From a virus (Duplodnaviria > Caudoviricetes): a DNA stretch of 64,000 bases. Where the stretch lies: IMG/VR virus record IMGVR_UViG_3300037400_006508, positions 64,001-128,000 of that record; one strand, 5' to 3'. The translations under genes were made by a program, and so were the position numbers. This document shows positions 8,247 through 42,839 of this stretch, piece after piece (position 1 is the first letter of the stretch; each line of letters begins with the position of its first letter). A model generated the notes under the pieces. It had not been told where the DNA came from, did not search any database, and saw nothing but the letters and a program-made list of their open reading frames with translations.

Positions 8247-8570
8247 ATGTCAGAGGCATACAGGACTGGATTCTACGCGAAGTGCGCCGAGGCCGGCATC
8301 GATCCGATGCTGGCCGACGTTTTGTACAAAGCCGCCGAGAACGGGGACCCGAACATCGCCAGGGCCACCGAGATATTCAAGGACTATCTGACGAACAGGA
8401 GGGTTTGCGTACGGAACGGAGAGACGCTCTCCGGGATAGCCAGCCGCAACGGAAAGAGCCTCCAGGAGGTCATGGAGGCCAATGGGATGTCTTCGCCGTA
8501 CGTGAAGCCCGGCCAGGTGCTGAAGATCCCTCTGATGTCGGTAGGAAAGGCGGGTAGGGATGCCACCTAA
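8247..8570 (+). CDS. LysM-domain protein carrying the shared YxxGFxxKCAE...KxA leader
   Basis: VRNGETLSGIASRNGKSLQEVMEANGMSSPYVKPGQVLKIP is a canonical LysM; leader MSEAYRTGFYAKCAEAGIDPMLADVLYKAA. Confidence 0.85.
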   Translation: MSEAYRTGFYAKCAEAGIDPMLADVLYKAAENGDPNIARATEIFKDYLTNRRVCVRNGETLSGIASRNGKSLQEVMEANGMSSPYVKPGQVLKIPLMSVGKAGRDAT

Positions 8571-8793
8571 CAGGAAACTCGGGTACATACCGTTCGCGGA
8601 GCGGATGCTTACGAAGGTCGACATCGACAAGATGTTCGACGATCTCCGCGATGAAATACAGGAGCAATTCGACAAGATCGAGGTCATAACCGATCCGGAG
8701 CCCAACACAGTATACGAGATGTTGGCCAGGCAGGACAAGCTGGTCGCGAACCTGAACCAGCTTGCCGAATTCGGGGGCGACACCAACAACTAG
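8560..8793 (+). CDS. Small hypothetical protein
   Basis: 77-aa ORF overlapping the upstream stop, directly before the fibre gene. Confidence 0.6.
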   Translation: MPPNRKLGYIPFAERMLTKVDIDKMFDDLRDEIQEQFDKIEVITDPEPNTVYEMLARQDKLVANLNQLAEFGGDTNN

Positions 8794-8804
8794 GAGTCTT
8801 CAAG

Positions 8805-10862
8805 ATGCCACAGGAACTTGGAAACATACTTCTTAACACAACGATCCTCAACAAGGTCGAGGTATCGGGCGTAATCGCAGACACCATAAACAAGGTCGAA
8901 AACCTCGTTGCGGAGGCCGTGTCGACCGCATGGAAGGCCGGAGGGTCGCAGCCGGCGTCCGCTTTTAGCAGCAATACGCTGTTGACGGAGGCTAACGAGG
9001 GCAAGGTGTACAACCTGTCCGACGCCCTTACGATAACGGACCAGAACAAGCAGTACTTCACCGAGAACGCGGCGGGAACCTACCCGGCCGGCACGAACGT
9101 GGCCGTCATCCAGACCACGCCTCCGGTGTACGCGGCCGCATCCGGTACCGCCGTATCCGGTACGAAGTATTATTCTAAGATGGGAAATTTCTACACGGAG
9201 GTTCCGGTACCCGCCGGGGAATCCGTGGAGGGATTGTATATACGTACCTCGCAGCCCGTGTACAAGTACGACGTTCTTGCCGGTACCGACGCCGCCAACG
9301 TCAAGCAGATAAACGTAGGCAGTTCCGCGTATCCGTATTATCCGCAGAACGGCGTTATAACGATACCGATCGCCAGCGGAGTGGAGGGCAGCACCAAGGT
9401 CGACGGGTTCATGTCTTCCGGCCAGGCGACAAAGCTCGATGAAATCGAATCTGGAGCCAACGTAGGTTTTAACGATATATTTACGGACAGTTCATCCGAC
9501 GTCGTTGCGTCCAGTGACGATACCGCGATGGCTATCAGCGGAGAAGGCGGAATCTATACATACAGTGGATCTTCGAATCATTCGCTTCCAACAGTCGTAA
9601 TAAAGGCCAAGGAAGCGACGGAATCGTCTCCTGGCGTAGTAACGCTAGCATCGTCAAACACGTATGAGTGGTCAACCAGCGCAGCGGGCGTTGCAACAGC
9701 GTCCGATGTTGTTTACTATGTTGAGAACTATGTTAGCGACTATAATAATAGTCTTGGAAGGTTTGACGAGCTTACAGTAAACTATGCGGATCCAAACCAC
9801 CCGGGGCAGACTACTTCAAGCTCCCTTTCCACCAGCGGTGGAAACACGCTTGCGGTAACACTTGGTGAAAATATGACGGCAAGCAACTTCTATGACGGTC
9901 ATGACGATACCGACAGACTCGTCACCATAGACGCCATTGTACCGGTCAAGAAGGTCAAGGTCGCCGGATCCGCCAACAGCATTTCACCCGACGCAAGCGG
10001 AAGGGTCACAATCCCGTCGGGAACAACGTCAGCCAGGGGCGTTGTCAAGCTGTACACAAGCGCGTATGGAAGCAATACCGACGGTGCCGTGACGCAGAAG
10101 GCCGTATCGGGCGCGATAAAAGGGCTTAGGAATTTTTCCAAAATTACCGTATTTTCCGATCCGAACGGCGACACTTACAGCTCTGGAGATTTGATTCCAG
10201 ATTCAAATGCATCTCAGCTTAACGTTACTCTTGACAGACCGCTTACCGTATCGAGCCTGTCAAGCTATGAGGTTGTTATTGGCGTCGTTAACGCGACATC
10301 GTCGGCTCCTGGCGCCATGAAGCTGTATCCTTCGGCAAACGGAACGAACAAGGACGGAGCCGTGACGCAGAGCGGAGTGAAGGCGATAGCGGATTCGGTA
10401 ACGGCGCTGCGCAACTACAGCCAGATCACAGCGAAGTATCAAAAATGGAACTCAGGTGGAACAGCCGTGGAATGGGTTTCTGGTTCCATAACTCCGGTAA
10501 CAAACTCGTCCACTATTGCCGTATACGGTGTTGAGTCGGTACAGGTGTCTTCCAGTTCTAATACCGCCATAGCCATTTCTGTCGCAAGACCGGATAGCGA
10601 ACACGGTTGGCCTGGCGTTGTGACGCTGGAAGACGCCGTAGAGTCTAGTTCAGGTGCAAACAAAGGCATTGCGGCATCGCCGTTGATGGTTACAAACTCC
10701 ACGGCCACCCGTGTAAAGAAGAGCATCACGCTCTCTGGACTCCGCCAGGTGTCGAACGACACGCAGACCCCGATTCCCGCGTCGATCAACTCCACCGACA
10801 TACCGAACACGCTCTACGGACTCATCAAGGCGCTCAAGTTCGCCGCCAACCACGCGAGCTAA
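8805..10862 (+). CDS. Tail fibre protein, Ser/Thr-rich
   Basis: Repeated fibre motifs ATESSPGVVTL, GTTSARGVVKL..GAVTQ, ATSSAPGAMKL..GAVTQ and PGVVTL..AASP. Confidence 0.75.
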   Translation: MPQELGNILLNTTILNKVEVSGVIADTINKVENLVAEAVSTAWKAGGSQPASAFSSNTLLTEANEGKVYNLSDALTITDQNKQYFTENAAGTYPAGTNVAVIQTTPPVYAAASGTAVSGTKYYSKMGNFYTEVPVPAGESVEGLYIRTSQPVYKYDVLAGTDAANVKQINVGSSAYPYYPQNGVITIPIASGVEGSTKVDGFMSSGQATKLDEIESGANVGFNDIFTDSSSDVVASSDDTAMAISGEGGIYTYSGSSNHSLPTVVIKAKEATESSPGVVTLASSNTYEWSTSAAGVATASDVVYYVENYVSDYNNSLGRFDELTVNYADPNHPGQTTSSSLSTSGGNTLAVTLGENMTASNFYDGHDDTDRLVTIDAIVPVKKVKVAGSANSISPDASGRVTIPSGTTSARGVVKLYTSAYGSNTDGAVTQKAVSGAIKGLRNFSKITVFSDPNGDTYSSGDLIPDSNASQLNVTLDRPLTVSSLSSYEVVIGVVNATSSAPGAMKLYPSANGTNKDGAVTQSGVKAIADSVTALRNYSQITAKYQKWNSGGTAVEWVSGSITPVTNSSTIAVYGVESVQVSSSSNTAIAISVARPDSEHGWPGVVTLEDAVESSSGANKGIAASPLMVTNSTATRVKKSITLSGLRQVSNDTQTPIPASINSTDIPNTLYGLIKALKFAANHAS

Positions 10863-10885
10863 CGACACAACCAAAGGAAACGACC

Positions 10886-12307
10886 GTGGACATCCACGAA
10901 ATCTTCGAGAACGCGTACGTCGTGACGAACGGCGGCGAAAGGCTGGAGCAGTTCAAGTCCGTCTTCAAGGCGGCCGGGCTGCCCGAATGCAAGGAGTGGA
11001 GGGCCTGCATGATAAAGGGCGAGGGCCAGATGGGCAATTCCGTCTCGCAGTACTCGCTCGTAAGGCACGCCAAGGAGGCGAATCTTCCGTTCCTTGTCGT
11101 TTTCGAGGATGACGCGGTACCGTCGGACGATGCGGAGAAGGAGATCGTTTCCGCGTTCGAGAACAGGAAGGACGACTGCCTGTGCCTGACCCTTGGGTGG
11201 AGCTACGACTCAGACCCGGACGCTGGCGAGGACAAGTCCAAGCATAGGCGCGTGTACGGTTCCCACGCCTATGCACTGTTCGGGGAGAAGGCGTACGACG
11301 CATACGTTTCGCAGTGGCAGGAAAACGGTAGGGCGGATGTCGTCATATCGAAGATGGCCGGCGCGACCATGAATGGCAAGAACCTGTTCGCGCAGCATTC
11401 GGTCGGGGAGACGATACACCTTCCCCACGGATGGACGATCGATTCTGAGATGGAGCGCATGGTTGACAGGGAGGCCGGAGACAGGTTTTCGAAGGCAAGA
11501 GCCGCCGTTGATGCGGCAAAGGCCAAGGATACCATACACGTCGCGTACACGATCGACATCCAGGGCAAGGGCGCCCAGCAGTTCAACGACCAGCTGTACG
11601 TTTCCGCCAGGTCGCTCAAGCTGTCGAAGGCGAAGGATGACGACATCGTCGTCCATGTCATGTACAACGAGATCTCCGTCGACATGATGGAGCGTCTGCA
11701 CGCGCTGGAGTCCGACGGATTCAAGGTGGTGGGAAGGAAGCTTGCAAGGACGGACATGGACTACTGGCAGCAGTTCTCCAAGTACGACCCGGAGTCGCCG
11801 CAGAGGTCGTGGGGCGGCATTGTATATGCAAGGCTGTGGCTTCCGTTGCTTCTTCCTGACGTGAAGAGGTGCATATACCTGGATTCGGATACTTTGGTAA
11901 GGGCCAGCCTGAAGGATTTTTATTCGTCGGATCTGGAAGGGAAGCCGCTCGGCATGGTCATGGGCAGCATAGCCGAGTATGGGTACAATTCCGGTGTCAT
12001 GTTGATGGACCTGGAGGCCATGAGGTCGGATGGATCCGTCTACGGCAAGCTGGAGAAGTTCATGGCCGAGAACGCCAGGAAGTTCTATTGCCCCGACCAG
12101 ACCGTGATCAACAAGTTCTTCGAGGGCAGGATCAAGGAGTTCGGGCAGGAGTGGAACTACCCTCCGAACCAGGGCGTCGTGGACCAGTTCATGCCGAAGG
12201 CGAAGGTTCTTCATTTCTACAACGGCACGCAGAAGCCATACAATCTGTACGCGGACGACTTCGGCCGGTGCCTTGACGAATGGAACAGGATACTTCTGGG
12301 GAGGTAG
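10886..12307 (+). CDS. Two-domain glycosyltransferase (GT25-like N-domain + GT8 C-domain)
   Basis: N-domain LVVFEDDA and GSHAYAL; C-domain YARLWLPLLLP..CIYLDSDTLV, YNSGVMLMDL, DQTVIN, LHFYNG.KP. Confidence 0.85.
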   Translation: MDIHEIFENAYVVTNGGERLEQFKSVFKAAGLPECKEWRACMIKGEGQMGNSVSQYSLVRHAKEANLPFLVVFEDDAVPSDDAEKEIVSAFENRKDDCLCLTLGWSYDSDPDAGEDKSKHRRVYGSHAYALFGEKAYDAYVSQWQENGRADVVISKMAGATMNGKNLFAQHSVGETIHLPHGWTIDSEMERMVDREAGDRFSKARAAVDAAKAKDTIHVAYTIDIQGKGAQQFNDQLYVSARSLKLSKAKDDDIVVHVMYNEISVDMMERLHALESDGFKVVGRKLARTDMDYWQQFSKYDPESPQRSWGGIVYARLWLPLLLPDVKRCIYLDSDTLVRASLKDFYSSDLEGKPLGMVMGSIAEYGYNSGVMLMDLEAMRSDGSVYGKLEKFMAENARKFYCPDQTVINKFFEGRIKEFGQEWNYPPNQGVVDQFMPKAKVLHFYNGTQKPYNLYADDFGRCLDEWNRILLGR

Positions 12308-12308
12308 G

Positions 12309-12689
12309 ATGTCCAAGGAATACGCCGCATTTCAGCTCGACGAGCTCGTGCCGGAGGTATCCGACACGAGGTACACGATCTCCACACCGACGCAGACCAC
12401 ATCCGGTACTACCGTGTCGTTGACGTTGAACGACAAGTCGATCAACCAGGTGTCGCTGGCGCCAACCGTCACAGGTGTCACTGTTTCTTTCCCCGCGAAA
12501 GTTCCAGGTTACGCCAGGGACTTCTTCGTAAGGCTCGTGATCACCGGCACAACGGTTCCGGCCATCACGTGGCAGGAGGCCAACGGGGATCCGATCGACT
12601 TCGACGTGGACGACGACTCCTGGGCCGATATAGAGCAGGGCGTCAACATCCTGATGTTCACGGAGACGAGCCAGGCCGCACAGGCTTGA
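12309..12689 (+). CDS. Small beta-rich tail-fibre-associated protein
   Basis: ATG at 12309; Thr/Val-rich beta-strand pattern; lies in the fibre module. Confidence 0.6.
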   Translation: MSKEYAAFQLDELVPEVSDTRYTISTPTQTTSGTTVSLTLNDKSINQVSLAPTVTGVTVSFPAKVPGYARDFFVRLVITGTTVPAITWQEANGDPIDFDVDDDSWADIEQGVNILMFTETSQAAQA

Positions 12690-12699
12690 GGGGTGCACT

Positions 12700-15600
12700 A
12701 TGTATCCGATTCCGGCAAACGCGGCGCGTATCCAGTACCTCGAAAGTACCGGTACGCAGTACGTGGACACTGGGGTAGTTCCAACAATCAACACGAAGTT
12801 TGTTTATGACATGCGACTTACCGATGTTGAGAACACCAGCTATTTTGGATCTTTTAGTGCCAACAACAGATTCCAGCTGACTAACACATTAAGTAACTCT
12901 AGGACGGTTTTTCGTTTTGCGTGTGGTATTTCTTCAGATTCGGCCATAGATACTAATATCGCTGCCGACACGGATCGACATCTGTTCAGCATCGATCTAG
13001 GCGGAGGAAGCTGTGTTGTTTCTGTGGATGATTCAACCTTTACCAGAACAATAGGGACATCTTTAGTAGATGGCTACTCCGTTTATCTTCTTTCAAGACA
13101 CAATGTGAATGGCGCTTCTGCTTCGAAAGGCGCCCTGTATGCAGCCAAGCACTACGAGAACGGTATTTTGTGCCATGACTGGGTCCCAGTCCGTGTCGGA
13201 ACGGTTGGATATTTGTTCGACCGCATGAGCGGCCAGTTGTTCGGCAACCAGGGGACGGGAGACCCGTTCGTCCTCGGTCCGGACGACTTCTCGATCTTCT
13301 CGCATTCCGTGAAGCACGTCGAGGTTGTGAGCAGCAGGCCGTATGACGCCGAGGTGGAGTACATCGAGTCAACGGGAACACAGTACATTGATACGGGATT
13401 TGATTTTGCATCCAGTCATGATTTCACAATTTCATTATATTTTGACCTACTTAAGCGGAGGGATCCAAGTGAAAACAACTATCTTTTTTCTTGCATCGAT
13501 AGTTCAGCATGGTTATCATGTGAGATAGATCGGTCTTCTCCGTATCGGGCCTATGCAAACGTAGGAACAAAAACGCTTATATACTGTGGGCCATCCCCAT
13601 ATCCATTTAATTCATGGGATATCTTCACCTTTTCAGTAAATGTGAATTCGCAGCAATATACAATTGCTGGTGGTAATTGGTCAACGAGCGGAACGTACAC
13701 GGGTACTTTACCCAGTGGTCGTATCAATTTGCTTACGGGTCGAAATTTGGCGTCAACCGGATCAAGGCCATTTGTTAGGATCGGCTATGTTAAAATTTGG
13801 GACAATGGCACCCTCGTCCGTGACTTTGTTCCAGTCCGTGTGGGCACCGAATACTGCCTCTATGACAAAGCCAATCCGACAAGTGGGGACAATGGGGATG
13901 GGCTTTACCACAACAAGGGCACCGGCGCATTCCTCGGAGGCTCGGACACTGGTCCGAGCATAGTGCTGGCGGGCAGGGTCTTGGGCGACTCATCCGGTAC
14001 CGTGAAGGCCGTGCGCAAGCACTACGACATGCCGGTGCAGTACACGATCGACGAGTGCAACGGCAACGCGCCTACTGCCGTCAACGTGTATTTTCCTTCA
14101 GGAAAGTACAGTGCGCTGAACTACACGCCTACGTGGGAACACCATAGGTTCGTGGGATGGTATACATCCAGGTATGCTCCGCTGGAGTATGTGTACAAAG
14201 CAGCAGAAGCTGATGCCTACGTAGATTCCGGCATTGCAGCCGAAAACAAAGGAACATGGGAAACGGATATACGGTTTTCAACTTCCGGAAATTGCAGATA
14301 CATAGGTGTTGGGACTTCTGGGTCAACGGCAAAGATATCGGCAGGTCTACAGTCGCCGTCATCGACTACAATGATACCTTCGTGCTACGAAACGTGGAAC
14401 GATTCTCCGCTAACGACAATAGACACGACTACAAGACATTTTTTGAGATATGTGTTTCAACCCGGCAATCAGCAATTTTATTGCGACGGCGTTTTGCACA
14501 TGTCGTCAACTAAAACGTCTGTCACTGTTCCTAATTGCAATATAGGCATATTTGAATGCGTAAACCAAGATGGCACAAGACACACATATCATAAATCAAG
14601 AGCCGTGTATTTGTATGAGTGCAAGCTGTATAACAGCAGTGGAGTTCTTGTAAGGCATTTTCTGCCGGTCAGCGATTACTCTGGTGACGCTGCTCTTTAC
14701 GATCTCGTGTCCAATCAGCTGTTTTACTCGCAAACAAGTACGAAACTGGAAGCGGGGTCTGCTGAAACTGAGACGGCGGTGTCTCCATCCGATGCTGTAG
14801 TCTTCGATCGATCGACAGTGTACGCCAGATGGCAGCTTCCGACAACGGTGACCTTCGACGCCACGACCAATGGCGGCCAGATGCCGTCCGGCTGGGTGTC
14901 GCCGGATTACTACGAAGGGCAGCCGTATGGCATACTTCCGACACCAACCAAGTCAGGCGAGGTGTTCCTCGGGTGGTTTACTTCGGGCGGAACCAGGGTT
15001 ACAACGTCCAGCGTTGTTTCTGCCGGCACATTGACCGCACGGTACGCCGCAGTGACATACGACACATCGTTCCAGGTCACCACTACGTCGTCCTACCGCA
15101 AGACCGGAATCTATTCCGCCAACCGATATTCTTCCTCCGACCCGATTGTGGTTGACTGGGGAGATGGAACAACCGATGTTGTTTATGGCAACATCAGCCA
15201 GCTTGCGCACACCTATTCTGGCGCTTCTACATACACGGTCAAAATTTCCGACAACATTAGCACCTTCTGCCCATCATACAGCAACACCACATGGTATCAA
15301 ACGACATCGCAGAATCAGTATACCTTCAAGAAAGTGTTGACCCTCTCATCGAAGGTGACACAGCTGTCGTCATATGCGTTTTACTACTGCTCAGCCATGA
15401 CGGATGCGATCATCCCAAGCAAGGCGACCTCAATACCGACTTCTTGTTTCTATTATTGCTCACAGTTGAAGAGCTCCTCTGTGCAGCTTCCAAGCACGGT
15501 GACAAGCATTGGAAGTTACGCCTTCTACTATTGCAGAGGCAGTTCCTTTATCTCGATAATGATACCGGCGTCGGTGACTAGCATCGGGTCTTACGCTTTC

Positions 15601-16776
15601 GCGAACGACAATTACTTGAGAAATATAACCTTTGAGACGTCGAGTAGCACACTCACACTTAACACGTATGCCTTCAGTGCGTGCTTTTATAGTGGATCGA
15701 CGGCAGCCTCGATCGACCTTTCGCCGAGGAAGATTACTTCTATACCAAACTACTGCTTTAACAATTGCAGGTATTTGAAGGGCATAGTATGGCCTCAAGG
15801 ATTGACCAGTATTGGAGGATCTGCGTTCCGGTACTGCTTCTACTATACTGCTAGCACAGGCACTGTGGAAATCCCAGAGGGTGTTACGAACATCTCTGGC
15901 ACCTATGCGTTCGCCAACTGCCTATACTTGACCGCTGTGACATTGCCAAGCACATTGACCAACCTCAACAACTACACCTTCTATTATTGCACGAGGCTGG
16001 CGACCATCACTTCCAACAGGTCAACGGCTCCCACGGTGTCCTCCGCCACATTCGGCAACAGTTCAACTTACTATACGGGCAGGACATACTACTCGACGGG
16101 AAAGAACAGCCTATATGTGCCAGCAGGAGCAACCGGGTACAATGCATCTTACTGGTCGAGCGTTTTGTGCAACAGCTCCATGTGCGGATTTACTCTTATC
16201 GAGAATTCCATACAGGAGGTAGAATATATCACGCTTACGACAGCGCCTTCCGGAACAATGAGCACGAATGACGGAAACATTCTTCCGATCGACGTCGTTC
16301 CGGGCACTTCTACAGAGCTGGAGATAGACTGGGTTGTGAACAACTCTACAGGAAACATACTGTTTGGAATCTCGTCGTCCAGCGATTCTGCGGATTTCCG
16401 CATATTCTCAACCAACTCTAATTATTACTATGATAGGGGGTCCGGGAGGCTGAGTCCGTCGTATACCACGTTTGGAGTCGGGCTGGGTACGAGGTTCAAG
16501 ATAAAGGCCGGCAACTATTATCTTCAGAACGTGACGGGAGGATATACTGCAACAGGAACAAGTGCGGCGTATACACCGCAGTCTCCACAGTGTCTTGGAT
16601 TCTGGGGGTACACGACGATATACTCCTGCAAGGTGTGGGACGGTAATACGCTTGTCCGTAGTCTTACGCCGGCCAGAATAGGGCAGAACGGAGGATTGTA
16701 CGACTCCGTTTCAGGCAGATTCTTCAGGGTGATCGGTAATGGCGCGTACACGCTTGGATCCGATGTGACGCAGTAG
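12700..16776 (+). CDS. Multidomain adhesin / receptor-binding protein: four lectin/LamG-like repeats, InlB B-repeat-like, PKD-like and BspA-type LRR domains
   Basis: Repeats Y(L/I)ESTGTQY(V/I)DTG...LVRDFVPVR..LYD; TVTFDA..YGILPTPTKSGEVFLGWF; VDWGDGTT..HTYS; LPSTVTSIGSYAFYYC-type LRRs. Confidence 0.8.
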   Translation: MYPIPANAARIQYLESTGTQYVDTGVVPTINTKFVYDMRLTDVENTSYFGSFSANNRFQLTNTLSNSRTVFRFACGISSDSAIDTNIAADTDRHLFSIDLGGGSCVVSVDDSTFTRTIGTSLVDGYSVYLLSRHNVNGASASKGALYAAKHYENGILCHDWVPVRVGTVGYLFDRMSGQLFGNQGTGDPFVLGPDDFSIFSHSVKHVEVVSSRPYDAEVEYIESTGTQYIDTGFDFASSHDFTISLYFDLLKRRDPSENNYLFSCIDSSAWLSCEIDRSSPYRAYANVGTKTLIYCGPSPYPFNSWDIFTFSVNVNSQQYTIAGGNWSTSGTYTGTLPSGRINLLTGRNLASTGSRPFVRIGYVKIWDNGTLVRDFVPVRVGTEYCLYDKANPTSGDNGDGLYHNKGTGAFLGGSDTGPSIVLAGRVLGDSSGTVKAVRKHYDMPVQYTIDECNGNAPTAVNVYFPSGKYSALNYTPTWEHHRFVGWYTSRYAPLEYVYKAAEADAYVDSGIAAENKGTWETDIRFSTSGNCRYIGVGTSGSTAKISAGLQSPSSTTMIPSCYETWNDSPLTTIDTTTRHFLRYVFQPGNQQFYCDGVLHMSSTKTSVTVPNCNIGIFECVNQDGTRHTYHKSRAVYLYECKLYNSSGVLVRHFLPVSDYSGDAALYDLVSNQLFYSQTSTKLEAGSAETETAVSPSDAVVFDRSTVYARWQLPTTVTFDATTNGGQMPSGWVSPDYYEGQPYGILPTPTKSGEVFLGWFTSGGTRVTTSSVVSAGTLTARYAAVTYDTSFQVTTTSSYRKTGIYSANRYSSSDPIVVDWGDGTTDVVYGNISQLAHTYSGASTYTVKISDNISTFCPSYSNTTWYQTTSQNQYTFKKVLTLSSKVTQLSSYAFYYCSAMTDAIIPSKATSIPTSCFYYCSQLKSSSVQLPSTVTSIGSYAFYYCRGSSFISIMIPASVTSIGSYAFANDNYLRNITFETSSSTLTLNTYAFSACFYSGSTAASIDLSPRKITSIPNYCFNNCRYLKGIVWPQGLTSIGGSAFRYCFYYTASTGTVEIPEGVTNISGTYAFANCLYLTAVTLPSTLTNLNNYTFYYCTRLATITSNRSTAPTVSSATFGNSSTYYTGRTYYSTGKNSLYVPAGATGYNASYWSSVLCNSSMCGFTLIENSIQEVEYITLTTAPSGTMSTNDGNILPIDVVPGTSTELEIDWVVNNSTGNILFGISSSSDSADFRIFSTNSNYYYDRGSGRLSPSYTTFGVGLGTRFKIKAGNYYLQNVTGGYTATGTSAAYTPQSPQCLGFWGYTTIYSCKVWDGNTLVRSLTPARIGQNGGLYDSVSGRFFRVIGNGAYTLGSDVTQ

Positions 16777-16780
16777 ACGC

Positions 16781-18004: not shown

Positions 18005-18013
18005 GAGAAAAAC

Positions 18014-18517: not shown

Positions 18518-18526
18518 GAGGACGAC

Positions 18527-18976: not shown

Positions 18977-18985
18977 AAGTCCGGC

Positions 18986-22322: not shown

Positions 22323-22372
22323 CGCCGCATAGGTTTTTTTGGTTTAATCGCATAAACATCCTGGAGATCGAG

Positions 22373-22942: not shown

Positions 22943-22943
22943 G

Positions 22944-23519: not shown

Positions 23520-23523
23520 CCGG

Positions 23524-26091: not shown

Positions 26092-26094
26092 CAG

Positions 26095-29621: not shown

Positions 29622-29622
29622 G

Positions 29623-34005: not shown

Positions 34006-34175
34006 AGAAGTACGATCTTAGTTACCATATCTTGTTGAAGATGGCCGGTCTTGAGAAGGACGCATGGCCGTGGAGCAGCCGTGCGCCCGCGTTCGACTAT
34101 TCCAAGGCGCAGATAGACACGTCGGTCGGCAACAACGCGTATAGAAGCTTCAACAAAGCGTACGCCGGTGCGTGA
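34002..34175 (+). CDS. 57-aa protein with KxA motifs (not in the ORF track)
   Basis: ATGA overlap with the RNAP stop; MKKYDLSYHILLKMAGLEKDAWPW... Confidence 0.55.
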   Translation: MKKYDLSYHILLKMAGLEKDAWPWSSRAPAFDYSKAQIDTSVGNNAYRSFNKAYAGA

Positions 34176-34187
34176 TTGGGGGCTAAA

Positions 34188-34673
34188 ATGACACCATACG
34201 AACTTGGTTTTTTGAAAACTGCGCGGGCCAAGCTGTCTGACAGCGACGTGGAAGCCTTGCGCGAGATGATGGCGCAGCAGAAGGAGAACGCGAGGCAGCG
34301 CGAGCTGCGTCGTACCGCAAGGTTCGACAAGAACCGCAAGGAGCGCGTAAGGGATGCGAAGAACTACATGATGATAATCCTCGGCCTTGCCGGATTCATG
34401 GGCGGAAGGCTTGCGGGAGGCGCAATCGGAAAGTCGATCGGACAGCCCGGAGACATGACGCACAACAAGGGTGCTCTCATCGGGTCGCTGTCTGGGTTGG
34501 TTGCCGGAGGAATAGGCGGACGTTACTTCGGAGAAGGGGCAGGAAACAGGACCGCCGACAGGATGGAGCAGATCGAGAAGGACACCGGGATACGAGTCAA
34601 CGAGCAGGAGACGGAGAACCTGGCCCGCACGACGAACAACCTGATGCTCTACAACACGTTTTTCAAACACTAG
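34188..34673 (+). CDS. Glycine-zipper membrane protein with a truncated leader
   Basis: MTPYELGFLKTA; GLAGFMGGRLAGGAIG..GALIGSLSGLVAGGIGG. Confidence 0.75.
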   Translation: MTPYELGFLKTARAKLSDSDVEALREMMAQQKENARQRELRRTARFDKNRKERVRDAKNYMMIILGLAGFMGGRLAGGAIGKSIGQPGDMTHNKGALIGSLSGLVAGGIGGRYFGEGAGNRTADRMEQIEKDTGIRVNEQETENLARTTNNLMLYNTFFKH

Positions 34674-34703
34674 TTGCCTACATCGGCACATTTTTGGTAA
34701 AGT
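34674..34703 (+). promoter_or_regulatory. Putative promoter TTGCCT-N18-TAAAGT (TTTTTGG-TAAAGT)
   Basis: Intergenic; shares the TTTTGGTAnnnT motif. Confidence 0.45.
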
Positions 34704-34729
34704 AGATGTCAAGCAAGGAAGGACACAAC

Positions 34730-35272
34730 ATGTTCGACTACAAAGGATACAAGGAACTTCAGGACGTACTGTCCAAGAAGGCCCAGTTCGTGCCGATGGG
34801 CGGAGACCCTGCGGCGGGTGGAATGCCTCCGGGCGATCCGGCGGCTGGTGGAATGCCTCCGGGCGATCCGGCTGCGATGGGCGGCGCGATGCCTCCTGAC
34901 GCCGGTGGAATGCCTCCGGTAGATCCCGCCGCAATGGGAGGAGACCCCATGGCCGGTGGAATGCCGCCGGTGGATCCGGCGATGATGGGAGGGGCGATGC
35001 CGCCAGGGGCCGATCCAATGGCCGGTATGCCCGATCCTGCGGCTGGCGACGTTTCTCCGTCAGGTGAGCCGTACATGAAGATAACGCCGACGCAGCTCAG
35101 CAAGCTGTTCAAGCAGTTCGCAGAGGTGTTCAAGAGCGTGCTTGGAATACAGCAGCCGGCCGGTGCTGCTCCGGCGGCTCCGGCGGCTCCGCAGCAGGAT
35201 CCTAATCTAGCGGCGAAAGTCACCGAAGTCGACGCGAAGCTCAATGCTCTAATAAACCAGATCGGAGGTTAA
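34730..35272 (+). CDS. Low-complexity Gly/Pro/Met protein with a KxA leader
   Basis: MFDYKGYKELQDVLSKKA followed by GGMPPGDPAA repeats. Confidence 0.75.
   Translation: MFDYKGYKELQDVLSKKAQFVPMGGDPAAGGMPPGDPAAGGMPPGDPAAMGGAMPPDAGGMPPVDPAAMGGDPMAGGMPPVDPAMMGGAMPPGADPMAGMPDPAAGDVSPSGEPYMKITPTQLSKLFKQFAEVFKSVLGIQQPAGAAPAAPAAPQQDPNLAAKVTEVDAKLNALINQIGG
34795..35050 (+). repeat. Imperfect tandem coding repeat (GGMPP(G/V)DPAA units)
   Basis: Repeated ggtggaatgcctccgggcgatccggc-like units. Confidence 0.85.
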
Positions 35273-35276
35273 TTAC

Positions 35277-36254: not shown

Positions 36255-36256
36255 AG

Positions 36257-38116
36257 ATGCCGACAACGATCGGCCAGATCTACGTAAATGAAGCCCTTCC
36301 TCCGGAGTACCGTGACTACAACAGGGTCATGGGCGCTCCGGAGATGAAGGGCATTCTGACCGACATAATCAATAACCACCCGGACAAGTACAGGGAGGTA
36401 TCGGCCGCCCTCATGCGAGCAGGAAACAAGTTCGCGTACGAGGGAGGTACGACCCTTAGGCTGTCCGACGTGGCTCCGCCCTTTGACAGAAAGCCGCTGT
36501 ACGCGTCGATAGAGAAGGCCGAGAACGCGATACGTTCATCCAGGCTGTCCGACGACGAGAAGAACGAGCAGCTTAAGTCCCTCTACGAAAAGGCGTACGA
36601 AGCCATAAAGGGCGATACGTACGACGTGGCTCTTGCCGCCAACAATCCGTTCGCCCTGCAGGTGAAGTCGAAGGCGAGAGGCGACCCAAACCAGTTGTCG
36701 GCCATGCTGTCAACGCCAGGCGTGTATGCGAACAGCAAGGGCGAGACGATCCCCATGTTCATCAAGCATAGCTACGCGGAGGGGCTTTCACCGGCGGAGA
36801 TATGGGCCGGAGCGTACGGCGCCAGACTAGGAACAGTGTCGACGAAGTTCGCGACGAGGCAGGCCGGAGAGCTTGGAAAGCTCCTTACGTCCGCGTCGAT
36901 CGATCAGGTAGTTACGGAGGATGACTGCGGTACGATCAACGGGATGCCGGCAAGCGTTGACGACAACGACAACATAGGCGCCCTTCTGGCGTCTCCAGCC
37001 GGCGGATACGATGCCGGTACGATCATAACGAAATCGGTTCTGTCCGATATAAGGAAGTCGGGCGCCACCGACATACTGGTCAGGTCTCCGATAACATGCG
37101 GTGCCAAGAACGGGGTATGTTCGCATTGCGCCGGGGTCAGGGAGACCGGAGGCCTTCCGCCCGTCGGGTACAACCTCGGTACGAACGCTGCGGCGGCTCT
37201 AGCCGAGAGGCTGGCCCAGGGTTCTTTGAACGTAAAGCACAGCGGAAAGAAGAACAAGGGCGCCGGACAGTACCAGGGGTTCGAGATGATCAAGCGCATG
37301 GCGACGGTGCCGAAGAACTATGCGGACCGCGCCACCGTTGCCGAGCTGGACGGAACGGTCGACAAGATAGTCAACGCCCCCCAGGGAGGCCATTTCGTAG
37401 TAATAGGCGACCAAAAGCACTATGTTCCTTCCGGGTATGACATTCTGGTCAAGGAGGGCGATTCCGTCGAGGCGGGAGACCAGCTTTCTGATGGGGTCAT
37501 CAGTCCGGCCGACGCCGTCAGGCTCAAAGGCATCGGCGAAGGCCGCAGGTACTTTGCGAACAGGTTCACGAAGGCGTTCAGGGATTCGGGCTACGCCGTG
37601 AACAGAAGGAACGCCGAGGCCGTCGCAAAGGCGCTCATAAACAATGTGGTGGTCGAGAGCGAGGACGCCGAGGCGCAGATGCTGCCGGGCGATACCGTCA
37701 CCTACGGCAGATGGTCATGGGGATACAAGCCGCGTCCGAATTCGACGCAGCTGTCGCCGAAGGCGGCGATAGGGCAGTATCTCGAACAGCCGGCCCTTCA
37801 CTATACGATAGGCACCAGGATCACAAAGAAGGTCGCGGACGAGCTTACGAAGTTCAAGGTACCGGCCGTGTTGGCGAACAAGTCGGCCGTCGGAGTACGT
37901 CCGGAGATGCAGTCCGTCGTGCAGACGACAGGAAACACCGACGACTGGATGGCGAGGCTGGGCACCACGTATCTCGGCAAGAGACTGACGGAGGACGTAC
38001 AGCGCGGCGCCGAGTCCAACGTCCATGGGACGAATCCGTACCCCGGTATAGCGAAGGGTACCGAGTTCGGACAATGGGGTTCGCCCGGACACAGGGACGG
38101 GCCGTACTATTACTAG
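36257..38116 (+). CDS. Phage RNA polymerase beta' C-terminal half (bridge helix, Zn site, trigger loop, SBHM)
   Basis: Starts TTIGQ..N..LP; SKARG..Q; SYAEGLS..E...AYGARLG..T..AG.L..L...VVTEDDCGT; VRSPITC...GVC..CAG; AAAALAERLAQGSLNVKHSG; EGDSVEAGDQLSDG. Confidence 0.93.
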   Translation: MPTTIGQIYVNEALPPEYRDYNRVMGAPEMKGILTDIINNHPDKYREVSAALMRAGNKFAYEGGTTLRLSDVAPPFDRKPLYASIEKAENAIRSSRLSDDEKNEQLKSLYEKAYEAIKGDTYDVALAANNPFALQVKSKARGDPNQLSAMLSTPGVYANSKGETIPMFIKHSYAEGLSPAEIWAGAYGARLGTVSTKFATRQAGELGKLLTSASIDQVVTEDDCGTINGMPASVDDNDNIGALLASPAGGYDAGTIITKSVLSDIRKSGATDILVRSPITCGAKNGVCSHCAGVRETGGLPPVGYNLGTNAAAALAERLAQGSLNVKHSGKKNKGAGQYQGFEMIKRMATVPKNYADRATVAELDGTVDKIVNAPQGGHFVVIGDQKHYVPSGYDILVKEGDSVEAGDQLSDGVISPADAVRLKGIGEGRRYFANRFTKAFRDSGYAVNRRNAEAVAKALINNVVVESEDAEAQMLPGDTVTYGRWSWGYKPRPNSTQLSPKAAIGQYLEQPALHYTIGTRITKKVADELTKFKVPAVLANKSAVGVRPEMQSVVQTTGNTDDWMARLGTTYLGKRLTEDVQRGAESNVHGTNPYPGIAKGTEFGQWGSPGHRDGPYYY

Positions 38117-38121
38117 GCAAA

Positions 38122-38150
38122 TTGCAACAAGTTGTTTCTTTTGGTACGAT
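38122..38150 (+). promoter_or_regulatory. Putative sigma70-type promoter TTGCAA-N17-TACGAT with extended TG
   Basis: TTGCAA at 38122-38127; TTTTGG-TACGAT ending at 38150; intergenic. Confidence 0.6.
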
Positions 38151-38175
38151 GAAATAAATCCGAAGGGGATAAGGG

Positions 38176-40671
38176 ATGGCGAATAAATTCAGTTTCAAGT
38201 CGCTTCTTGCCGACGACCGGCTTGTTCCGGATCTGTGGCTTCACAAGGAGGCGCAGGAGCAGCCGGACGAGACGCAGTTCGCGCAGGACTTCGCTAACTT
38301 GGCGTTCCAGTTCATGCAGGACAGGGCGCCGGCCATGATGAAGTACCTTCTGGGCTTCGAGGTCGTGGACCGTGCGGAGAACGGAACGCGTGCCGTCGGT
38401 ATTTTCGGGTTCAAGATCGACGGGGACTATTTCTACGTTCCGGCGTTCTTCCTGAACTCCCAGGTCAAGGGCATCGATTCCATTCTTTCCAAGCGGACCA
38501 ATTCGTTCGTGCCCCTTACGGAGGAATGGATCAACTATATCATCAACAGGAAGGCGAACGAGCTTGGCAAGGAGGCCCCCAAGGAGACAACCGACGGAGA
38601 CGGCCAGGCCGAGTTCGAGAATCCGAACTTCGATTTCCTCCGTACGCCGACCGTAGGTCCGCTCGGAGGATACAATTCCAGCTACAAGATAGCGGAGGAC
38701 AAGTCCCCGTGGACCTTCGCGAAGGCGTGGGAGGTAATGAAGTCCGGTACCGAGGAGCATATGGAGAAGGACTCGGAGCTCCGCGAGGCGTTCGTCGGAT
38801 TCTGCTGCGCCGTGAAGGGCGTCAGGTCGCCTATGCACAAATCCGCTTCTTCCCCGATACAGGAATTCATATCGAAGGTCGGCGGCCCTGCGTCCGAGCG
38901 CACGTTCATGCGTTCGCTGAAGAACGTCAAGATGGCGAACGCCGCGTTGGAGTTCTACACCGGCCCGGAGGCGTTCCACGTGTCGTCCTACCCGAACCGC
39001 GGAAAGGACTGCTACCTTCTACGGAAGAAGGCCGAGGAGATTTCCGAGAAGGCCCCGAAGGTTGAAATCACCGACGACTCGCAGAGCGAGGAGGAGGCAC
39101 GCGACGTAATAGAGGACGGATTCACGGTGAGAGACAGACGCGACGAGGCGGAGAAGTCCGACGTCGTGTCTACCGACTACGAGAAGTCGTTCCAGAATCC
39201 GGACAAGCCAGGCGCGTACGACGTTCTTGTCACCGGAGGCGTCACGAAGAGGGCCTACGTGTTCGCGGCCGATCGCATGTTCCATCGCGGCGAGCGCGGT
39301 ACGATGGTCGTCTACTTCCCGGACAACAAGCAGGTCATCACGGCCAGGAACCGCGACATCTTCACCGAGGGCGGCTGCCAGGAGGAGATGCAGGACGTGT
39401 ACGGAAAGGGCAAGGACATACAGGACTGCGCCCTTCATGGTAAGTACATCTTCATCGGAAAGAACGGTGTATCCCTTCCCGAGTTCTACGTCAGCAATCT
39501 GAAGAGGGACAAGGGCGAGCGTCCTGTCATTTCCGGCAATTTCGAGTACTTCTCGGATCCAGACTGGCGTCCGGACTTCGACGACGATTTCACCAATTAT
39601 TGGAAGGGTGACGAGTTCCATCACAGGAACGGCCTTACGAAGATTCGTCCGTCTGAAATGTCGTTCTGCGATGTAGAGCTTGCTTCGTTCACCGGATCGC
39701 CGAAGTTCACCGGAAGTTCGGTCGTGATGCCGTCCGATTGGAAGGCCCTGCAGGTCGGCGAGATCGAGCGCGGGTGGGACGAGTACGAGCCGATGTCCTC
39801 GACCGAGGAGGCGTTGAAGAACAAGGACAAGGTGACCTACAAGCTGGGTTCGCTTGATTCCCTGTCGTTCGACCTCCGCAAGGAGGGTGCCGCAAGGCTC
39901 GATCTACGCTCCGATGACGGTACCACGTTCTATTTCAACATGGACAAGGCCCCGTCGTTCACGAGGCCGGTAGGGTACAAGCAGGCCGCGATTTCGCTCG
40001 TGACGAAGCTTGGACTCCGTTATCCGGATGCCAAGAAGCTGCTCAAGACGGCTGCTGTCGAAAGGAAGGCCGTGTGCCTCGTCAAGTTCGCGCAGATGTC
40101 TCCTCTGGTCGGTGTTTCGACCGGAGTACCTACCGAGCAGACGCCGGGCGTCGATCCGTACACGGGAATACCGGCGTACGATCTGCCGTTCATCGACAAG
40201 ACCACGATGCCGTTCAACGGCGTCGAGCTTCCTCCGCAGGACAACCCGTACGGCGAGAACCTCGATGGCGAGATCTCGAGGCAGTCCGAGTCCGCAGGAG
40301 ACGGTCAGGGGGAGGCGGAGTTCGACGAGGAAGCCGCAGGACTCGCGCAGGACGCTGCGAAGCTCGGGCAGAAGCATGTGTTCGACAAGGCGGCGATCGG
40401 CGGTCTGGCGAAGGTGTACGACACAGGAGCCGTGATCGACTCCTATATACCGGAGTTCCTGACCGCCGTAGACAGGCTTGGTCGCGTGCTGTTTCTCTAC
40501 TATTGGAAGCACAACGATTTCATCGAAAGGTACGGTACGGACGACGTCATCGAGATGGAGGACGTCCTTCGTGGTACCTTCAAGCAACTTGGGAAGCTTA
40601 CGCTCGACCTCAAAAGGAAAGCCGTTGGCGGTGGGGATTCGGACGCCAGCATAGACACGATTGGAGCATAA
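38176..40671 (+). CDS. Large hypothetical protein rich in KxA motifs (candidate head core/internal protein)
   Basis: 831 aa; LHKEA, YKIA, HKSA, KMA, RKKA, KTA and VKFA fall at apparent segment boundaries. Confidence 0.6.
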   Translation: MANKFSFKSLLADDRLVPDLWLHKEAQEQPDETQFAQDFANLAFQFMQDRAPAMMKYLLGFEVVDRAENGTRAVGIFGFKIDGDYFYVPAFFLNSQVKGIDSILSKRTNSFVPLTEEWINYIINRKANELGKEAPKETTDGDGQAEFENPNFDFLRTPTVGPLGGYNSSYKIAEDKSPWTFAKAWEVMKSGTEEHMEKDSELREAFVGFCCAVKGVRSPMHKSASSPIQEFISKVGGPASERTFMRSLKNVKMANAALEFYTGPEAFHVSSYPNRGKDCYLLRKKAEEISEKAPKVEITDDSQSEEEARDVIEDGFTVRDRRDEAEKSDVVSTDYEKSFQNPDKPGAYDVLVTGGVTKRAYVFAADRMFHRGERGTMVVYFPDNKQVITARNRDIFTEGGCQEEMQDVYGKGKDIQDCALHGKYIFIGKNGVSLPEFYVSNLKRDKGERPVISGNFEYFSDPDWRPDFDDDFTNYWKGDEFHHRNGLTKIRPSEMSFCDVELASFTGSPKFTGSSVVMPSDWKALQVGEIERGWDEYEPMSSTEEALKNKDKVTYKLGSLDSLSFDLRKEGAARLDLRSDDGTTFYFNMDKAPSFTRPVGYKQAAISLVTKLGLRYPDAKKLLKTAAVERKAVCLVKFAQMSPLVGVSTGVPTEQTPGVDPYTGIPAYDLPFIDKTTMPFNGVELPPQDNPYGENLDGEISRQSESAGDGQGEAEFDEEAAGLAQDAAKLGQKHVFDKAAIGGLAKVYDTGAVIDSYIPEFLTAVDRLGRVLFLYYWKHNDFIERYGTDDVIEMEDVLRGTFKQLGKLTLDLKRKAVGGGDSDASIDTIGA

Positions 40672-40770
40672 AAGATGACAAGGTACGAACAAGGATTCCT
40701 CACCAAGTGCGCTTCGGCCAGAGTTCCGAAGAACGTAGCCTTCGCCCTTCTGAAGAGGGCGCAGGAAGCC
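40671..40770 (+). repeat. About 100-nt direct repeat, copy 1 (copy 2 at about 41851-41950), encoding the shared leader
   Basis: atgacaaggtacgaacaagg...ccaagtgcgcttcgg...gttccgaagaacgtagccttcgcccttctgaagagggcgcagga is nearly identical at both sites. Confidence 0.9.
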
Positions 40771-41463
40771 GGCTCGCAGGACGCGCAGCTCGGCTCACTG
40801 GATCAGGCCGAAAACGATTATCTTAAGCAACTTGGTAGGATGGAGAGTCTTGGCGAAGTTGATGACGATGGAAGTGGCAGCTCGGTAACTTTAAATCCGT
40901 TAGGCCATATATTTATGGACAGAGTGAAACGCATGGGTCTTACTGGTGGTCAGTACGATCAGCTATCGTATCCAGACGCACTTGCGAATATCCCGTGGAG
41001 TAATAAATTCGGACGCACTGTGCATAGCGTGGTGGATCCGATTTATAGCGCATTTGTATCAGATCCGCTAGAGAGATCAATAACGAGTCCGAGGATAACG
41101 ATGGACGAGCTTGAAGCCGCAAGGGCTGCGCAGGCTGAATGGGGTGCAAATCAGATATTCCCGGCTGGAACGAGGGCCAACAAGAAGATACAGGAGAGCC
41201 TTATAAACGCCGGCAGGAAGAATTACCAGAATTGGCTTGACTGGGGTACGGGTGCGCCGAGAGACAAGTACGATCCTACAGGAATAGAAGGCATGAATCT
41301 TGGTGAACCTCCGGAGCCCGGTGTGGATTACACCGAGCGGTTTGATTACGGCTCAGGCGTCAATTCTCTTACGCCGAGGAATATCCCGAAGCAGGAACTT
41401 CTCAGGCAGTATCAGAATTCAATGGTAAGAAACGGGTCTGGCAATAGGTCTGGGGTGGCGTGA
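40675..41463 (+). CDS. Leader-family protein, paralog of 41855..42469
   Basis: Leader MTRYEQGFLTKCASARVPKNVAFALLKRA; C-region LINAGRKN..RDKYDPTGIE..QNSMVRN. Confidence 0.8.
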   Translation: MTRYEQGFLTKCASARVPKNVAFALLKRAQEAGSQDAQLGSLDQAENDYLKQLGRMESLGEVDDDGSGSSVTLNPLGHIFMDRVKRMGLTGGQYDQLSYPDALANIPWSNKFGRTVHSVVDPIYSAFVSDPLERSITSPRITMDELEAARAAQAEWGANQIFPAGTRANKKIQESLINAGRKNYQNWLDWGTGAPRDKYDPTGIEGMNLGEPPEPGVDYTERFDYGSGVNSLTPRNIPKQELLRQYQNSMVRNGSGNRSGVA

Positions 41464-41464
41464 G

Positions 41465-41836
41465 ATGGACGAAGACGAGAAGCAGGAGAAATTCCGCGAG
41501 GAGGTAAGGGAGTTTCTCGCAAGGGACAAGTTGACCCTGGATAATCTTGTTATGAGGGTCGACAAGCTTGAGAAGACAGTGGTTCACGGCAATGGCGATC
41601 CGCCCCTTACGACTCAGATAGCCGCCATGCAGGTGCAGATGAACAATTTCAGGGACGAGCTGAAGGAAGTAAAGGACAAGATGGGCAAGCTGGATCAGAT
41701 GTGCGTTGACGTGGCCAGCATAAACGCAAAGCTTACGGCTAGGGCAAGCAGCAATGGCATGTGGATATGGGCGATCATCACGGTAGGAGCCGTAGTTTTG
41801 ACGCCGATTCTAGAGCATTTCCTGTTCGGAAAGTAA
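41465..41836 (+). CDS. Coiled-coil protein with a C-terminal TM helix (holin/XhlA-like architecture)
   Basis: VHGNGDP, a coiled coil, then WIWAIITVGAVVLTPIL. Confidence 0.55.
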   Translation: MDEDEKQEKFREEVREFLARDKLTLDNLVMRVDKLEKTVVHGNGDPPLTTQIAAMQVQMNNFRDELKEVKDKMGKLDQMCVDVASINAKLTARASSNGMWIWAIITVGAVVLTPILEHFLFGK

Positions 41837-41854
41837 AAGAGACAAGGAGAAAAA

Positions 41855-42469
41855 ATGACAAGGTACGAACAAGGGTTTCTAACCAAGTGCGCTTCGGTCC
41901 GTGTTCCGAAGAACGTAGCCTTCGCCCTTCTGAAGAGGGCGCAGGAGGCGAAGAATGATGACGCCGGTATAGGCGGTTACTCCGCTAATGGAATAAATTG
42001 GCTGGATACCGATCATGTTTTGGCGCCTAATCACAACTCATACGCAGGAAGACTTCTAGGGAATGCGAGAGGTGCTGAACGGATGGATTCCGGTAGATCA
42101 GGTATCAAAGCACCCAGATACTCTCCTGCCACTAATCTCTATTATGCAATGCCATCTTCAGACAATACCAATTCAGGTCCAATAAGCCAGCGTAGTCTTG
42201 ACGGGATTAGAAGTAGTCAGGCCCATCAGAACGCCGCGTCTATTGGATACTTCGGAGTTCCTCGAGATCGTATCATAAATAACCTTATTGAGGCAGGAAA
42301 GAAAAACCAGCAGAGCTACATCGATACCGGAACAGTCCCGAAGCGCGATACGCTCGATAGGACCGGCATAGAGACGCTGCAGCTCAGCCCGGAGGACGAG
42401 GCCCAGCTTCTGGAGATGCAGAATACCATGGCTAGGAATTCAAGACGTGGTACGAACGTGACGGCGTAA
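41855..42469 (+). CDS. Leader-family protein, paralog of 40675..41463
   Basis: Leader MTRYEQGFLTKCASVRVPKNVAFALLKRA; C-region LIEAGKKN..RDTLDRTGIE..QNTMARN. Confidence 0.8.
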   Translation: MTRYEQGFLTKCASVRVPKNVAFALLKRAQEAKNDDAGIGGYSANGINWLDTDHVLAPNHNSYAGRLLGNARGAERMDSGRSGIKAPRYSPATNLYYAMPSSDNTNSGPISQRSLDGIRSSQAHQNAASIGYFGVPRDRIINNLIEAGKKNQQSYIDTGTVPKRDTLDRTGIETLQLSPEDEAQLLEMQNTMARNSRRGTNVTA

Positions 42470-42488
42470 TGTCTTTAGTGAAACCAAA

Positions 42489-42839
42489 ATGACACAGAAC
42501 TACGTAAACGGATTTTTCACCAAGTGCGCGGAACAAAGGGTTCCGTACGATATCGCCGTTGCGCTGTACAAGAAAGCAGGTACTACAGGATTGTACGAGG
42601 CTCCTGTAACTCCAGCTGTACGCGCTGCCTACAATACGGGCGCTGCGCTTGGTACGGCAACCCGTGCAATGATGCCCGGTGGCAAGACCGAGATGGTGAG
42701 AAGGGGTCTTGTGTCGTATCTTAAGAACAGAGCAACTAGAGCAGCGATGAAAAAGCGTGAGGCGCAGAAAGTTCCGGCGAATAACGCTGCGGACAAAGCG
42801 GCCAGAGCCGCTGCCGTTATGATGGGCACGCAGAAGTAG
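42489..42839 (+). CDS. Leader-family protein with basic Ala-rich cargo
   Basis: Leader MTQNYVNGFFTKCAEQRVPYDIAVALYKKA. Confidence 0.78.
   Translation: MTQNYVNGFFTKCAEQRVPYDIAVALYKKAGTTGLYEAPVTPAVRAAYNTGAALGTATRAMMPGGKTEMVRRGLVSYLKNRATRAAMKKREAQKVPANNAADKAARAAAVMMGTQK

Follow-up and report, generated by a model that had tools for sequence, protein, structure and literature searches.

A conserved N-terminal leader on unrelated head-block proteins of an uncultivated phage: a candidate propeptide for prohead loading

Why would phage proteins with unrelated sequences begin with one and the same N-terminal module? The question is raised by the uncultivated phage of IMG/VR record IMGVR_UViG_3300037400_006508 (Caudoviricetes), whose linear sequence of 143,525 bp is approximately 95% complete. 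Positions 64,001-128,000 of this record form the 64,000-nt stretch analyzed here, termed the window, in which all coordinates are counted unless another genome is named and whose convincing genes all lie on the + strand. Six of these genes, designated by their first positions (8247, 22373, 22944, 40675, 41855, and 42489), open with a common module of 29-30 aa, the leader, which ends at a K-x-A triplet and is followed by the part of the protein referred to here as the cargo. On balance, the leader is probably a cleavable N-terminal propeptide that marks its cargos for the prohead and is removed at K-x-A by a protease resembling gp21 of phage T4.

The leader module and its cargos

The consensus of the leader is M-T-x-Y-E-Q-G-F-L-T-K-C-A-E-x-G-V ... 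L-L-K-x-A. An earlier inspection of the DNA by eye and translation (the sequence-only reading) had reported the same leader in these six genes, and this is confirmed: the six open reading frames (ORFs) translate as written, and a hidden Markov model (HMM) of the first 31 columns of the six, run against the six-frame translation of the whole genome, finds exactly these six (E 1e-16 to 1e-20; next match E 0.13). Nucleotide identity between leader copies is 46-68%, with the exception of 40675 and 41855 (93%), and 3-9 of the 11-17 residues shared by a given pair are encoded by different codons. Synonymous codons therefore vary freely among the copies, which places the selection on the peptide and rules out an RNA- or DNA-level cause of the repeat.

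Downstream of the leader, the cargos of the window are unrelated to each other, as had been claimed, save for the 40675 and 41855 pair, which is 34% identical over 88 aa (E 4e-10); every other pair has E > 0.7. The LysM assignment of the 8247 cargo was likewise correct (PF01476, 4e-14). This cargo is the conserved one, the other five (of six) having no orthologue in four related genomes, G001 to G004. Two of these relatives are complete, namely G001 (176,839 bp) and G002 (IMGVR_UViG_3300045988_110837; 150,989 bp, 38% GC), and contain 10 and 12 leader copies, respectively, at E<=1e-3 in a six-frame search. The partial contig G003 has three full copies and the fragment G004 three.

The leader is not confined to these genomes. 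Its profile matches 347 clusters at E<=1e-3 among 1.84 billion cluster representatives, and it is found across genomes of 38-60% GC. In 129 N-terminal copies, Y4, F8, and C12 never vary, and T2, G7, K11, and A13 rarely do. Among 138 cluster representatives, information content collapses from 3.97 bits at the Ala that closes the leader to 0.82 and then 0.33 at the following positions, so that the end of similarity at K-x-A, first proposed for the window genes, holds for the family at large. Two residues before the Lys of this triplet stands L or M in 132 of the 138.

As the sequence-only reading had suspected, the family appears to be undescribed. Over leader residues 1-30, no Pfam or PHROG family matches at E<=0.001 (the best, at E 0.05-0.35, are at chance level), and a literature search for the motif returned no paper containing it. 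The phage isolates of INPHARED gave no match by megablast of the region or tblastn of a leader. A degenerate DNA pattern searched in 185,579 species-representative bacterial genomes had 20 matches, approximately the number expected by chance, which share the pattern only and include no true leader copy.

The cargos are diverse. BLAST sorts 141 of them into 95 groups, 79 of which are singletons. Their composition favors Ala, Gly, Arg, and Pro, with approximately 0.1 Cys per cargo, and 87% of them carry a net positive charge. Pfam searches with 150 representatives match domains of the cargos only (LysM, glycine zippers, SH3_3, collagen, and DUF3008). The profile search of the genome and its relatives that had been recommended earlier thus finds the module on nonhomologous cargos and beginning at residue 1 in 142 of the 150 best cluster representatives, but it does not find it N-terminal without exception. 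Among the cluster representatives, 17 copies are internal or C-terminal, and the module can be repeated. A K-x-A triplet lies at most 20 residues upstream of 12 of these 17 copies, and K-x-S or K-x-G upstream of three more, against a background of 7.9%. These copies suggest polyprotein-like processing or a role of its own for the excised peptide.

Some variants of the module deserve separate mention. Three metagenomic proteins (P0028, P0039, and P0134) have a DUF3008-like N-terminal domain ahead of the module (PF11450 in one of them), and in P0028 and P0134 a K-x-A triplet directly precedes it. The distant leader proteins P0019 and P0028 lie on contigs of 1-1.4 kb only. In G002, eight leader genes carry near-identical short-form leaders ending in Y-K-Q-A, a sign of recent duplication or gene conversion there.

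Within the window, three further genes had been listed as shorter or divergent copies, one of which stands. The protein of gene 34188, with the N-terminus M-T-P-Y-E-L-G-F-L-K-T-A, resembles leader positions 1-13 but matches the profile at positions 1-9 only (E 0.13-0.77); from its sequence, it reads as a leader truncated at its first K-x-A. A similar short form is present in G002 at 23886-24209. The other two genes are not homologous to the leader: 26931 is not detected by the profile, 51616 reaches an hhalign probability of 0.2% in a profile-profile comparison, and N-proximal K-x-A triplets are all that they have in common with it.

In the AlphaFold2 model of the 8247 protein, helices at residues 3-15 and 20-31 are joined by a turn (predicted local distance difference test [pLDDT] 87-94) and followed by a weaker linker and then LysM. 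The leader is thus confidently predicted to form a two-helix hairpin. It does not resemble a Sec/Tat or lipoprotein signal, being charged throughout (E5, K11, E14, and K27) with no hydrophobic core of at least 10 residues; the residue directly before its Cys is Lys, and there is no lipobox. The invariant Cys12 forms part of the K-C-A triplet within the leader, around which the leader proteins are otherwise Cys-free.

The head block and a putative K-x-A code

The leader genes occupy a particular part of the genome. The markers of this region follow the order portal, RNA polymerase beta, the rest of beta', protease-scaffold, major capsid protein (MCP), and tail sheath, which is common to the window's genome, G001, and G002. 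G003 shares the portal and the RNA-polymerase part and ends within this block, whereas G004 has leader genes and none of the tested markers. Between portal and MCP lie 6/6 leader genes of the window's genome and 9/10 and 11/12 of those in two other genomes (P 1e-3 to 1e-6 in the three). The nearest isolate is Salmonella phage Arash (MCP identity 27%), and mass spectrometry of its virion found the homologous RNA polymerase subunits to be its most abundant proteins (PMC10585845). Since these subunits top the Arash virion, the block from portal to MCP very probably encodes the head and head-internal proteins.

A candidate for the maturation protease is encoded in the same block at 46976-48394. 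Its AlphaFold2 model has a pLDDT of 84.8, and its three top Foldseek matches are all T4 gp21 (5jbl), with a probability of 0.99. A VIA comparison with the same structure gave Z 11.6 and a root-mean-square deviation of 3.1 A over 147 of 164 residues, the next unrelated structure scoring 5.8; the VIA listing also includes herpesvirus proteases. At the sequence level, the PHROG and Atlas leads for this protein were weak, and phmmer searches of PDB sequences with the 472-aa protein and a 311-aa protein found no match. G003 is uninformative as a genome lacking the protease, since its contig ends inside the head block.

The protease family itself has a further feature. In an insertion of the protease domain, C156, C159, C172, and H174 (numbering of the window protein) are invariant and, to judge from the residues, could be a Cys3-His metal site. 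To our knowledge, no such site is known from T4 gp21. Ser146 is invariant as well and may be the catalytic nucleophile.

The triplet that ends the leader recurs in the proteins of the block, as is evident when K-x-A counts are set against composition-preserving shuffles. Over the whole block, the ratio of observed to expected is 1.58 (z 9.7). The protease protein has 13 triplets against 2.6 expected (z 7), and enrichment extends to the proteins of 43798, 48399, 49590, and 38176 (Table 1) and to the orthologues of all five in G001 and G002. Seven sites of the protease protein retain their K and A in 82-99% of 120 homologues, with a variable residue in the middle. Additionally, 16 of 27 head-block proteins have a K-x-A within residues 4-36 (5.6 expected), compared with 14 of 81 proteins in the rest of the genome (11.7 expected); the 27 leave out the leader proteins and a nonsyntenic insert. 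G001 and G002 have kept these N-terminal sites, again with variable x. The site of the 43798 protein (K-A-A, residues 31-33) is conserved in both, with a similar one (V-K-V-A) in Arash gp220, and that of the MCP (residues 27-29) is kept in 108 of 121 homologues (89%) despite indels directly upstream. Two residues before the Lys, L/I/V/M/F is present at 50% of sites in the block versus 28% outside (p 1e-8). The same K-x-A pattern is seen in Arash gp220, gp222, gp223, and gp225, and the Arash MCP (gp226) has K27-E-A29.

The cargos show the opposite tendency. The number of K-x-A triplets expected in them is 158, and they contain 94 (z -5.5). The avoidance extends to K-x-G and K-x-S but not to A-x-K, K-x-x-A, KA, R-x-A, E-x-A, or Q-x-A, and K-x-A is not depleted in ORFs from outside the block. 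On these sequence statistics, such avoidance would be expected only if the cargos meet the protease; it therefore suggests that they are exposed to it during maturation, i.e., inside the prohead. A maturation-protease code would predict all three findings, namely triplets enriched in scaffold-type proteins, N-proximal sites that are conserved, and triplets avoided in the mature parts. Removal of the leader at K-x-A by a prohead protease, as the sequence-only reading had it, is accordingly backed by strong indirect support (a protease of gp21 fold, K-x-A enrichment in head proteins, and avoidance in cargos).

In the proposed series of events, the two-helix hairpin would bring the precursor into the core of the assembling prohead. 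The set of cargos marked in this way would comprise fast-evolving, small, mostly basic, and disordered proteins. The gp21-like protease would then cut after the Ala of hydrophobic-x-K-x-A, and the freed cargos, which include peptidoglycan binders, glycine-zipper proteins, and many proteins without a known family, would remain with the packaged RNA polymerase inside the head, probably to exit with the DNA at infection. Leader cleavage, binding to the core or shell, presence in the virion, and ejection are steps that we infer; the scheme as a whole is plausible and has several independent sequence statistics behind it. A role as an address for prohead loading, followed by delivery to the host, is suggested by gene position, by analogy with phages T4 and P1, and by the types of cargo (LysM, SH3, and glycine zippers).

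Address, propeptide, or peptide

Several observations weigh against a leader that is both propeptide and address. Other head-block proteins have an N-terminal K-x-A with no leader; therefore, a cleavage site needs no 30-aa module, and it is the conservation of the leader alone that suggests its specific role as an address. The 17 internal or C-terminal copies are not predicted by a pure N-terminal signal, and the invariant Cys12 and the internal K-C-A are not accounted for by a propeptide. Moreover, avoidance of K-x-A does not hold for everything in the head: the RNA polymerase subunits, which presumably are packaged, show no such depletion. No cultivated phage in INPHARED carries the leader, and homology to the T4 signal discussed below is not demonstrable with either the leader HMM or a position-specific scoring matrix (PSSM).

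Some of these points would suit a leader that is a propeptide without being an address. Such a leader might keep the cargo inactive, soluble, or unfolded, or present the protease site, with entry into the prohead depending on something else. The many head-block proteins with K-x-A and no leader fit this, as do the disordered and basic cargos. No partner of the leader has been found either: complex prediction with the leader alignment against the protease-scaffold and the MCP scored 0.00, in a run without controls that speaks neither for nor against binding. We nevertheless give this alternative a limited chance. A 30-aa hairpin conserved over 347 clusters and from 38% to 60% GC goes far beyond the needs of a tripeptide site, which suggests a specific binding surface, and a module found on 95 unrelated groups of cargo is not a cargo-specific inhibitor.

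Alternatively, the leader could be a stable docking domain that is kept on the mature protein and anchors varied proteins to a shared partner, for instance the portal, the inside of the capsid wall, the RNA polymerase, or the lumen of the tail, with K-x-A simply marking the end of the domain. A confidently predicted fold, the repeated or C-terminal occurrence of the module, and the interleaving of leader genes with RNA polymerase genes are compatible with this possibility. It is made unlikely by three observations, all of which fit processing at the borders of the module: the terminal K-x-A agrees with the extended motif of the block, the cargos avoid K-x-A, and 12 of the 17 internal copies have a triplet just upstream.

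The features that a propeptide leaves aside are taken up by a third alternative, in which the excised peptide of ~30 residues is the product and the genes encode its precursors. The peptide might be a Cys-bearing internal component of the head, or a pseudo-substrate keeping the cargo bound to the protease-scaffold up to activation. In favor of this, no cargo comes close to the module in conservation, internal copies have a K-x-A on either side, the leader proteins, otherwise free of Cys, have an invariant one, and a K-C-A triplet lies within the module. This alternative is distinctly unlikely, as it has no precedent in such form, no partner or activity is known, and the LysM cargo is kept as an orthologue in five genomes, so that at least this cargo is under selection of its own. 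There is a small but real chance that the leader is excised as a Cys-bearing peptide of ~30 residues flanked by K-x-A, or that its internal K-C-A acts as a pseudo-substrate handle tethering cargos to the protease-scaffold until the protease fires. If true, this would constitute a new mechanism of loading and release, linked to a novel cleavage code of the gp21-type proteases.

Lastly, a leader that has nothing to do with the virion, belonging instead to intracellular host-takeover or membrane-targeted proteins that lie near head genes by chance, would suit the glycine zippers and peptidoglycan-binding domains of some cargos but is very improbable given the clustering of leader genes between portal and MCP in three genomes, their shared strand and tight spacing with late structural genes, the avoidance of K-x-A in cargos, and a leader that is charged throughout and has no hydrophobic signal-peptide core.

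A removable leader that directs cargos into the prohead has its closest counterpart in the capsid-targeting sequence (CTS) of T4. The CTS is an N-terminal propeptide of 10-19 aa with affinity for the core that is cut by gp21 and is present on diverse, poorly conserved internal proteins; its residues 4 and 7 matter for targeting and residues 8 and 10 for processing, and T4-related phages place CTS-like sequences on other basic proteins (PMC9026906). Like the CTS of IPI-III, Alt, and others, the leader is N-terminal and common to unrelated, fast-evolving, often basic proteins. The phage likewise encodes a protease of gp21 fold, and the leader ends in the motif at which this protease presumably cleaves. 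The T4 record gives M-K-T-Y-Q-E-F-I-A-E as the N-terminus of IPII/IPIII, with Tyr4 and Phe7 preceding an I-x-E site; residues 1-13 of the leader have a similar design, with Tyr4 and Phe8 followed by K-C-A. Unlike the CTS, the leader has 29-30 aa rather than 10 and is thus three times longer, is predicted to form a two-helix hairpin, contains an invariant Cys and two K-x-A triplets, is sometimes internal or repeated, and has a putative site of the form hydrophobic-x-K-x-A instead of L/I-x-E. The leader HMM has no match in the T4 genome at E<=10, and a leader PSSM (positions 2-10) ranks T4 IPII/IPIII 8-9 of 1326 Met starts, with negative scores.

Phage P1 provides a second parallel. There, the first 30 residues of DarB are enough to direct a protein into the capsid, from which it is delivered to the host (PMC9024508), and the leader is likewise an N-terminal stretch of ~30 residues. 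The P1 signal differs in being known from one protein, not from a multigene family, and in having no comparable site code.

Other systems are more distant. Giant phages of the phiKZ type (e.g., SPN3US), likewise large myoviruses, carry an RNA polymerase in the virion, and a gp21-like protease trims many of their internal or ejection proteins at a simple motif of the tripeptide type. Unlike the leader, their propeptides are not one conserved module and their motif ends in Glu; the leader clade is unrelated to them at the sequence level. The cargo-loading peptides of encapsulins and the helix-turn-helix coat-binding domain of P22 scaffolding protein dock cargo or scaffold inside an HK97-fold shell. 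These elements usually sit at the C-terminus, no protease removes them, and they have no sequence relationship to the leader.

The concept of a common N-terminal CTS on diverse internal proteins is therefore already known from T4-type phages; what is new is the leader module with its predicted structure and wide distribution, together with the K-x-A code linked to it. Should the leader be a loading tag, it would define a large and so far metagenome-only family (at least 347 clusters and ~10-12 genes per related genome), comprising the internal or ejected proteins of myoviruses of 140-200 kb that carry a virion RNA polymerase and form a widespread clade. An annotation rule would follow too, in which the leader plus the hydrophobic-x-K-x-A maturation site predicts mature N-termini. 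For placing foreign proteins in phage heads, the leader would join the T4 CTS and the signal of P1 DarB as a second, structurally defined packaging tag. The contrast in K-x-A statistics, with enrichment in scaffold proteins and avoidance in cargos, provides a general means of deducing protease codes and the contents of the head for phages not yet cultivated.

Features of the window and neighboring genes

The features of the window are collected in Table 1.

Table 1. Leader genes, head-block proteins, and markers of the window
Position	Strand	Feature	Remarks
3548-6211	+	Portal protein	phrog_2739 at 2e-8; synteny; upstream border of the block with all leader genes
8247-8570	+	Leader (8247-8336, 30 aa), linker, and LysM cargo; 107 aa	PF01476 4e-14; orthologues in G001-G004
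22373-22942	+	Leader (22373-22459, 29 aa) and basic cargo (isoelectric point [pI] 10.7), no known family	
22944-23519	+	Leader (22944-23030) and cargo without known family	R-C-S replaces K-C-A
29623-34005	+	RNA polymerase beta fused to N-terminal part of beta'	Pfam Rpb2_6 9e-43, Rpb1_2 1.5e-24; amid leader genes
34188-34673	+	Short form: first 12 residues like leader positions 1-13, K-T-A end, then glycine-zipper protein (weak match)	
36257-38116	+	Remaining RNA polymerase beta'	PHROGs; homologue of Arash gp216
38176-40671	+	Conserved 831-aa head-block protein, K-x-A enriched	N-terminal K-x-A conserved, variable x; homologue of Arash gp218 "structural protein"
40675-41463	+	Leader (40675-40761) and acidic cargo	41855 paralogue
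41855-42469	+	Leader (41855-41941) and cargo	40675 paralogue
42489-42839	+	Leader (42489-42578, 30 aa) and basic Ala-rich cargo (pI 11.1)	
43798-45249	+	K-x-A-rich head-block protein, scaffold/core candidate	K-x-A 13 vs 3.4 expected
46976-48394	+	Putative prohead protease (gp21-like fold, residues ~1-209) with helical C-terminal half; 472 aa	13 K-x-A
48399-49580	+	K-x-A-rich helical protein, scaffold candidate	K-x-A 16 vs 7.3 expected
49590-49973	+	Small K-x-A-rich protein	K-x-A 6 vs 1.3 expected
50568-51542	+	MCP, K-K-A at residues 27-29	Atlas features 0.98 "major capsid protein"; 27% identity to annotated Arash MCP
53905-56556		Tail sheath	After MCP in marker order

The two RNA polymerase parts of the window are 32% identical to Arash gp206 and 29% identical to gp216, respectively; by mass spectrometry, gp206 ranks first in abundance in the Arash virion. 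Small genes, including the short-leader gene 34188, sit between them.

The region 8805-21844 differs from its surroundings in base composition (GC 0.50-0.52 vs 0.57-0.60) and has few or no homologues in G001 and G002. It contains a gene for a 1358-aa protein, one for a weakly glycosyltransferase-like protein (10886), and genes for small Cys-rich proteins, and it interrupts the run of leader genes that in G001 follows the portal. This region looks like an inserted accessory module.

The relatives also encode a K-x-A-rich protein of 350-560 aa with 10-12 sites (z 3.7-5.1), located at 52251-53579 (-) in G001, 97361-98425 (+) in G002, 33850-35142 in G003, and 14315-15994 in G004. An internal segment of this protein resembles helix 1 of the leader, including K-C-A-E-Y-G. 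Its gene adjoins leader genes outside the portal-MCP block, and no homologue was found in the window's genome.

Within the window, the protein of 34706-35272 has a conserved N-terminal K-x-A followed by Q-F-V-P-M and then by repeats rich in Gly, Pro, and Met, and it is kept in both G001 and G002.

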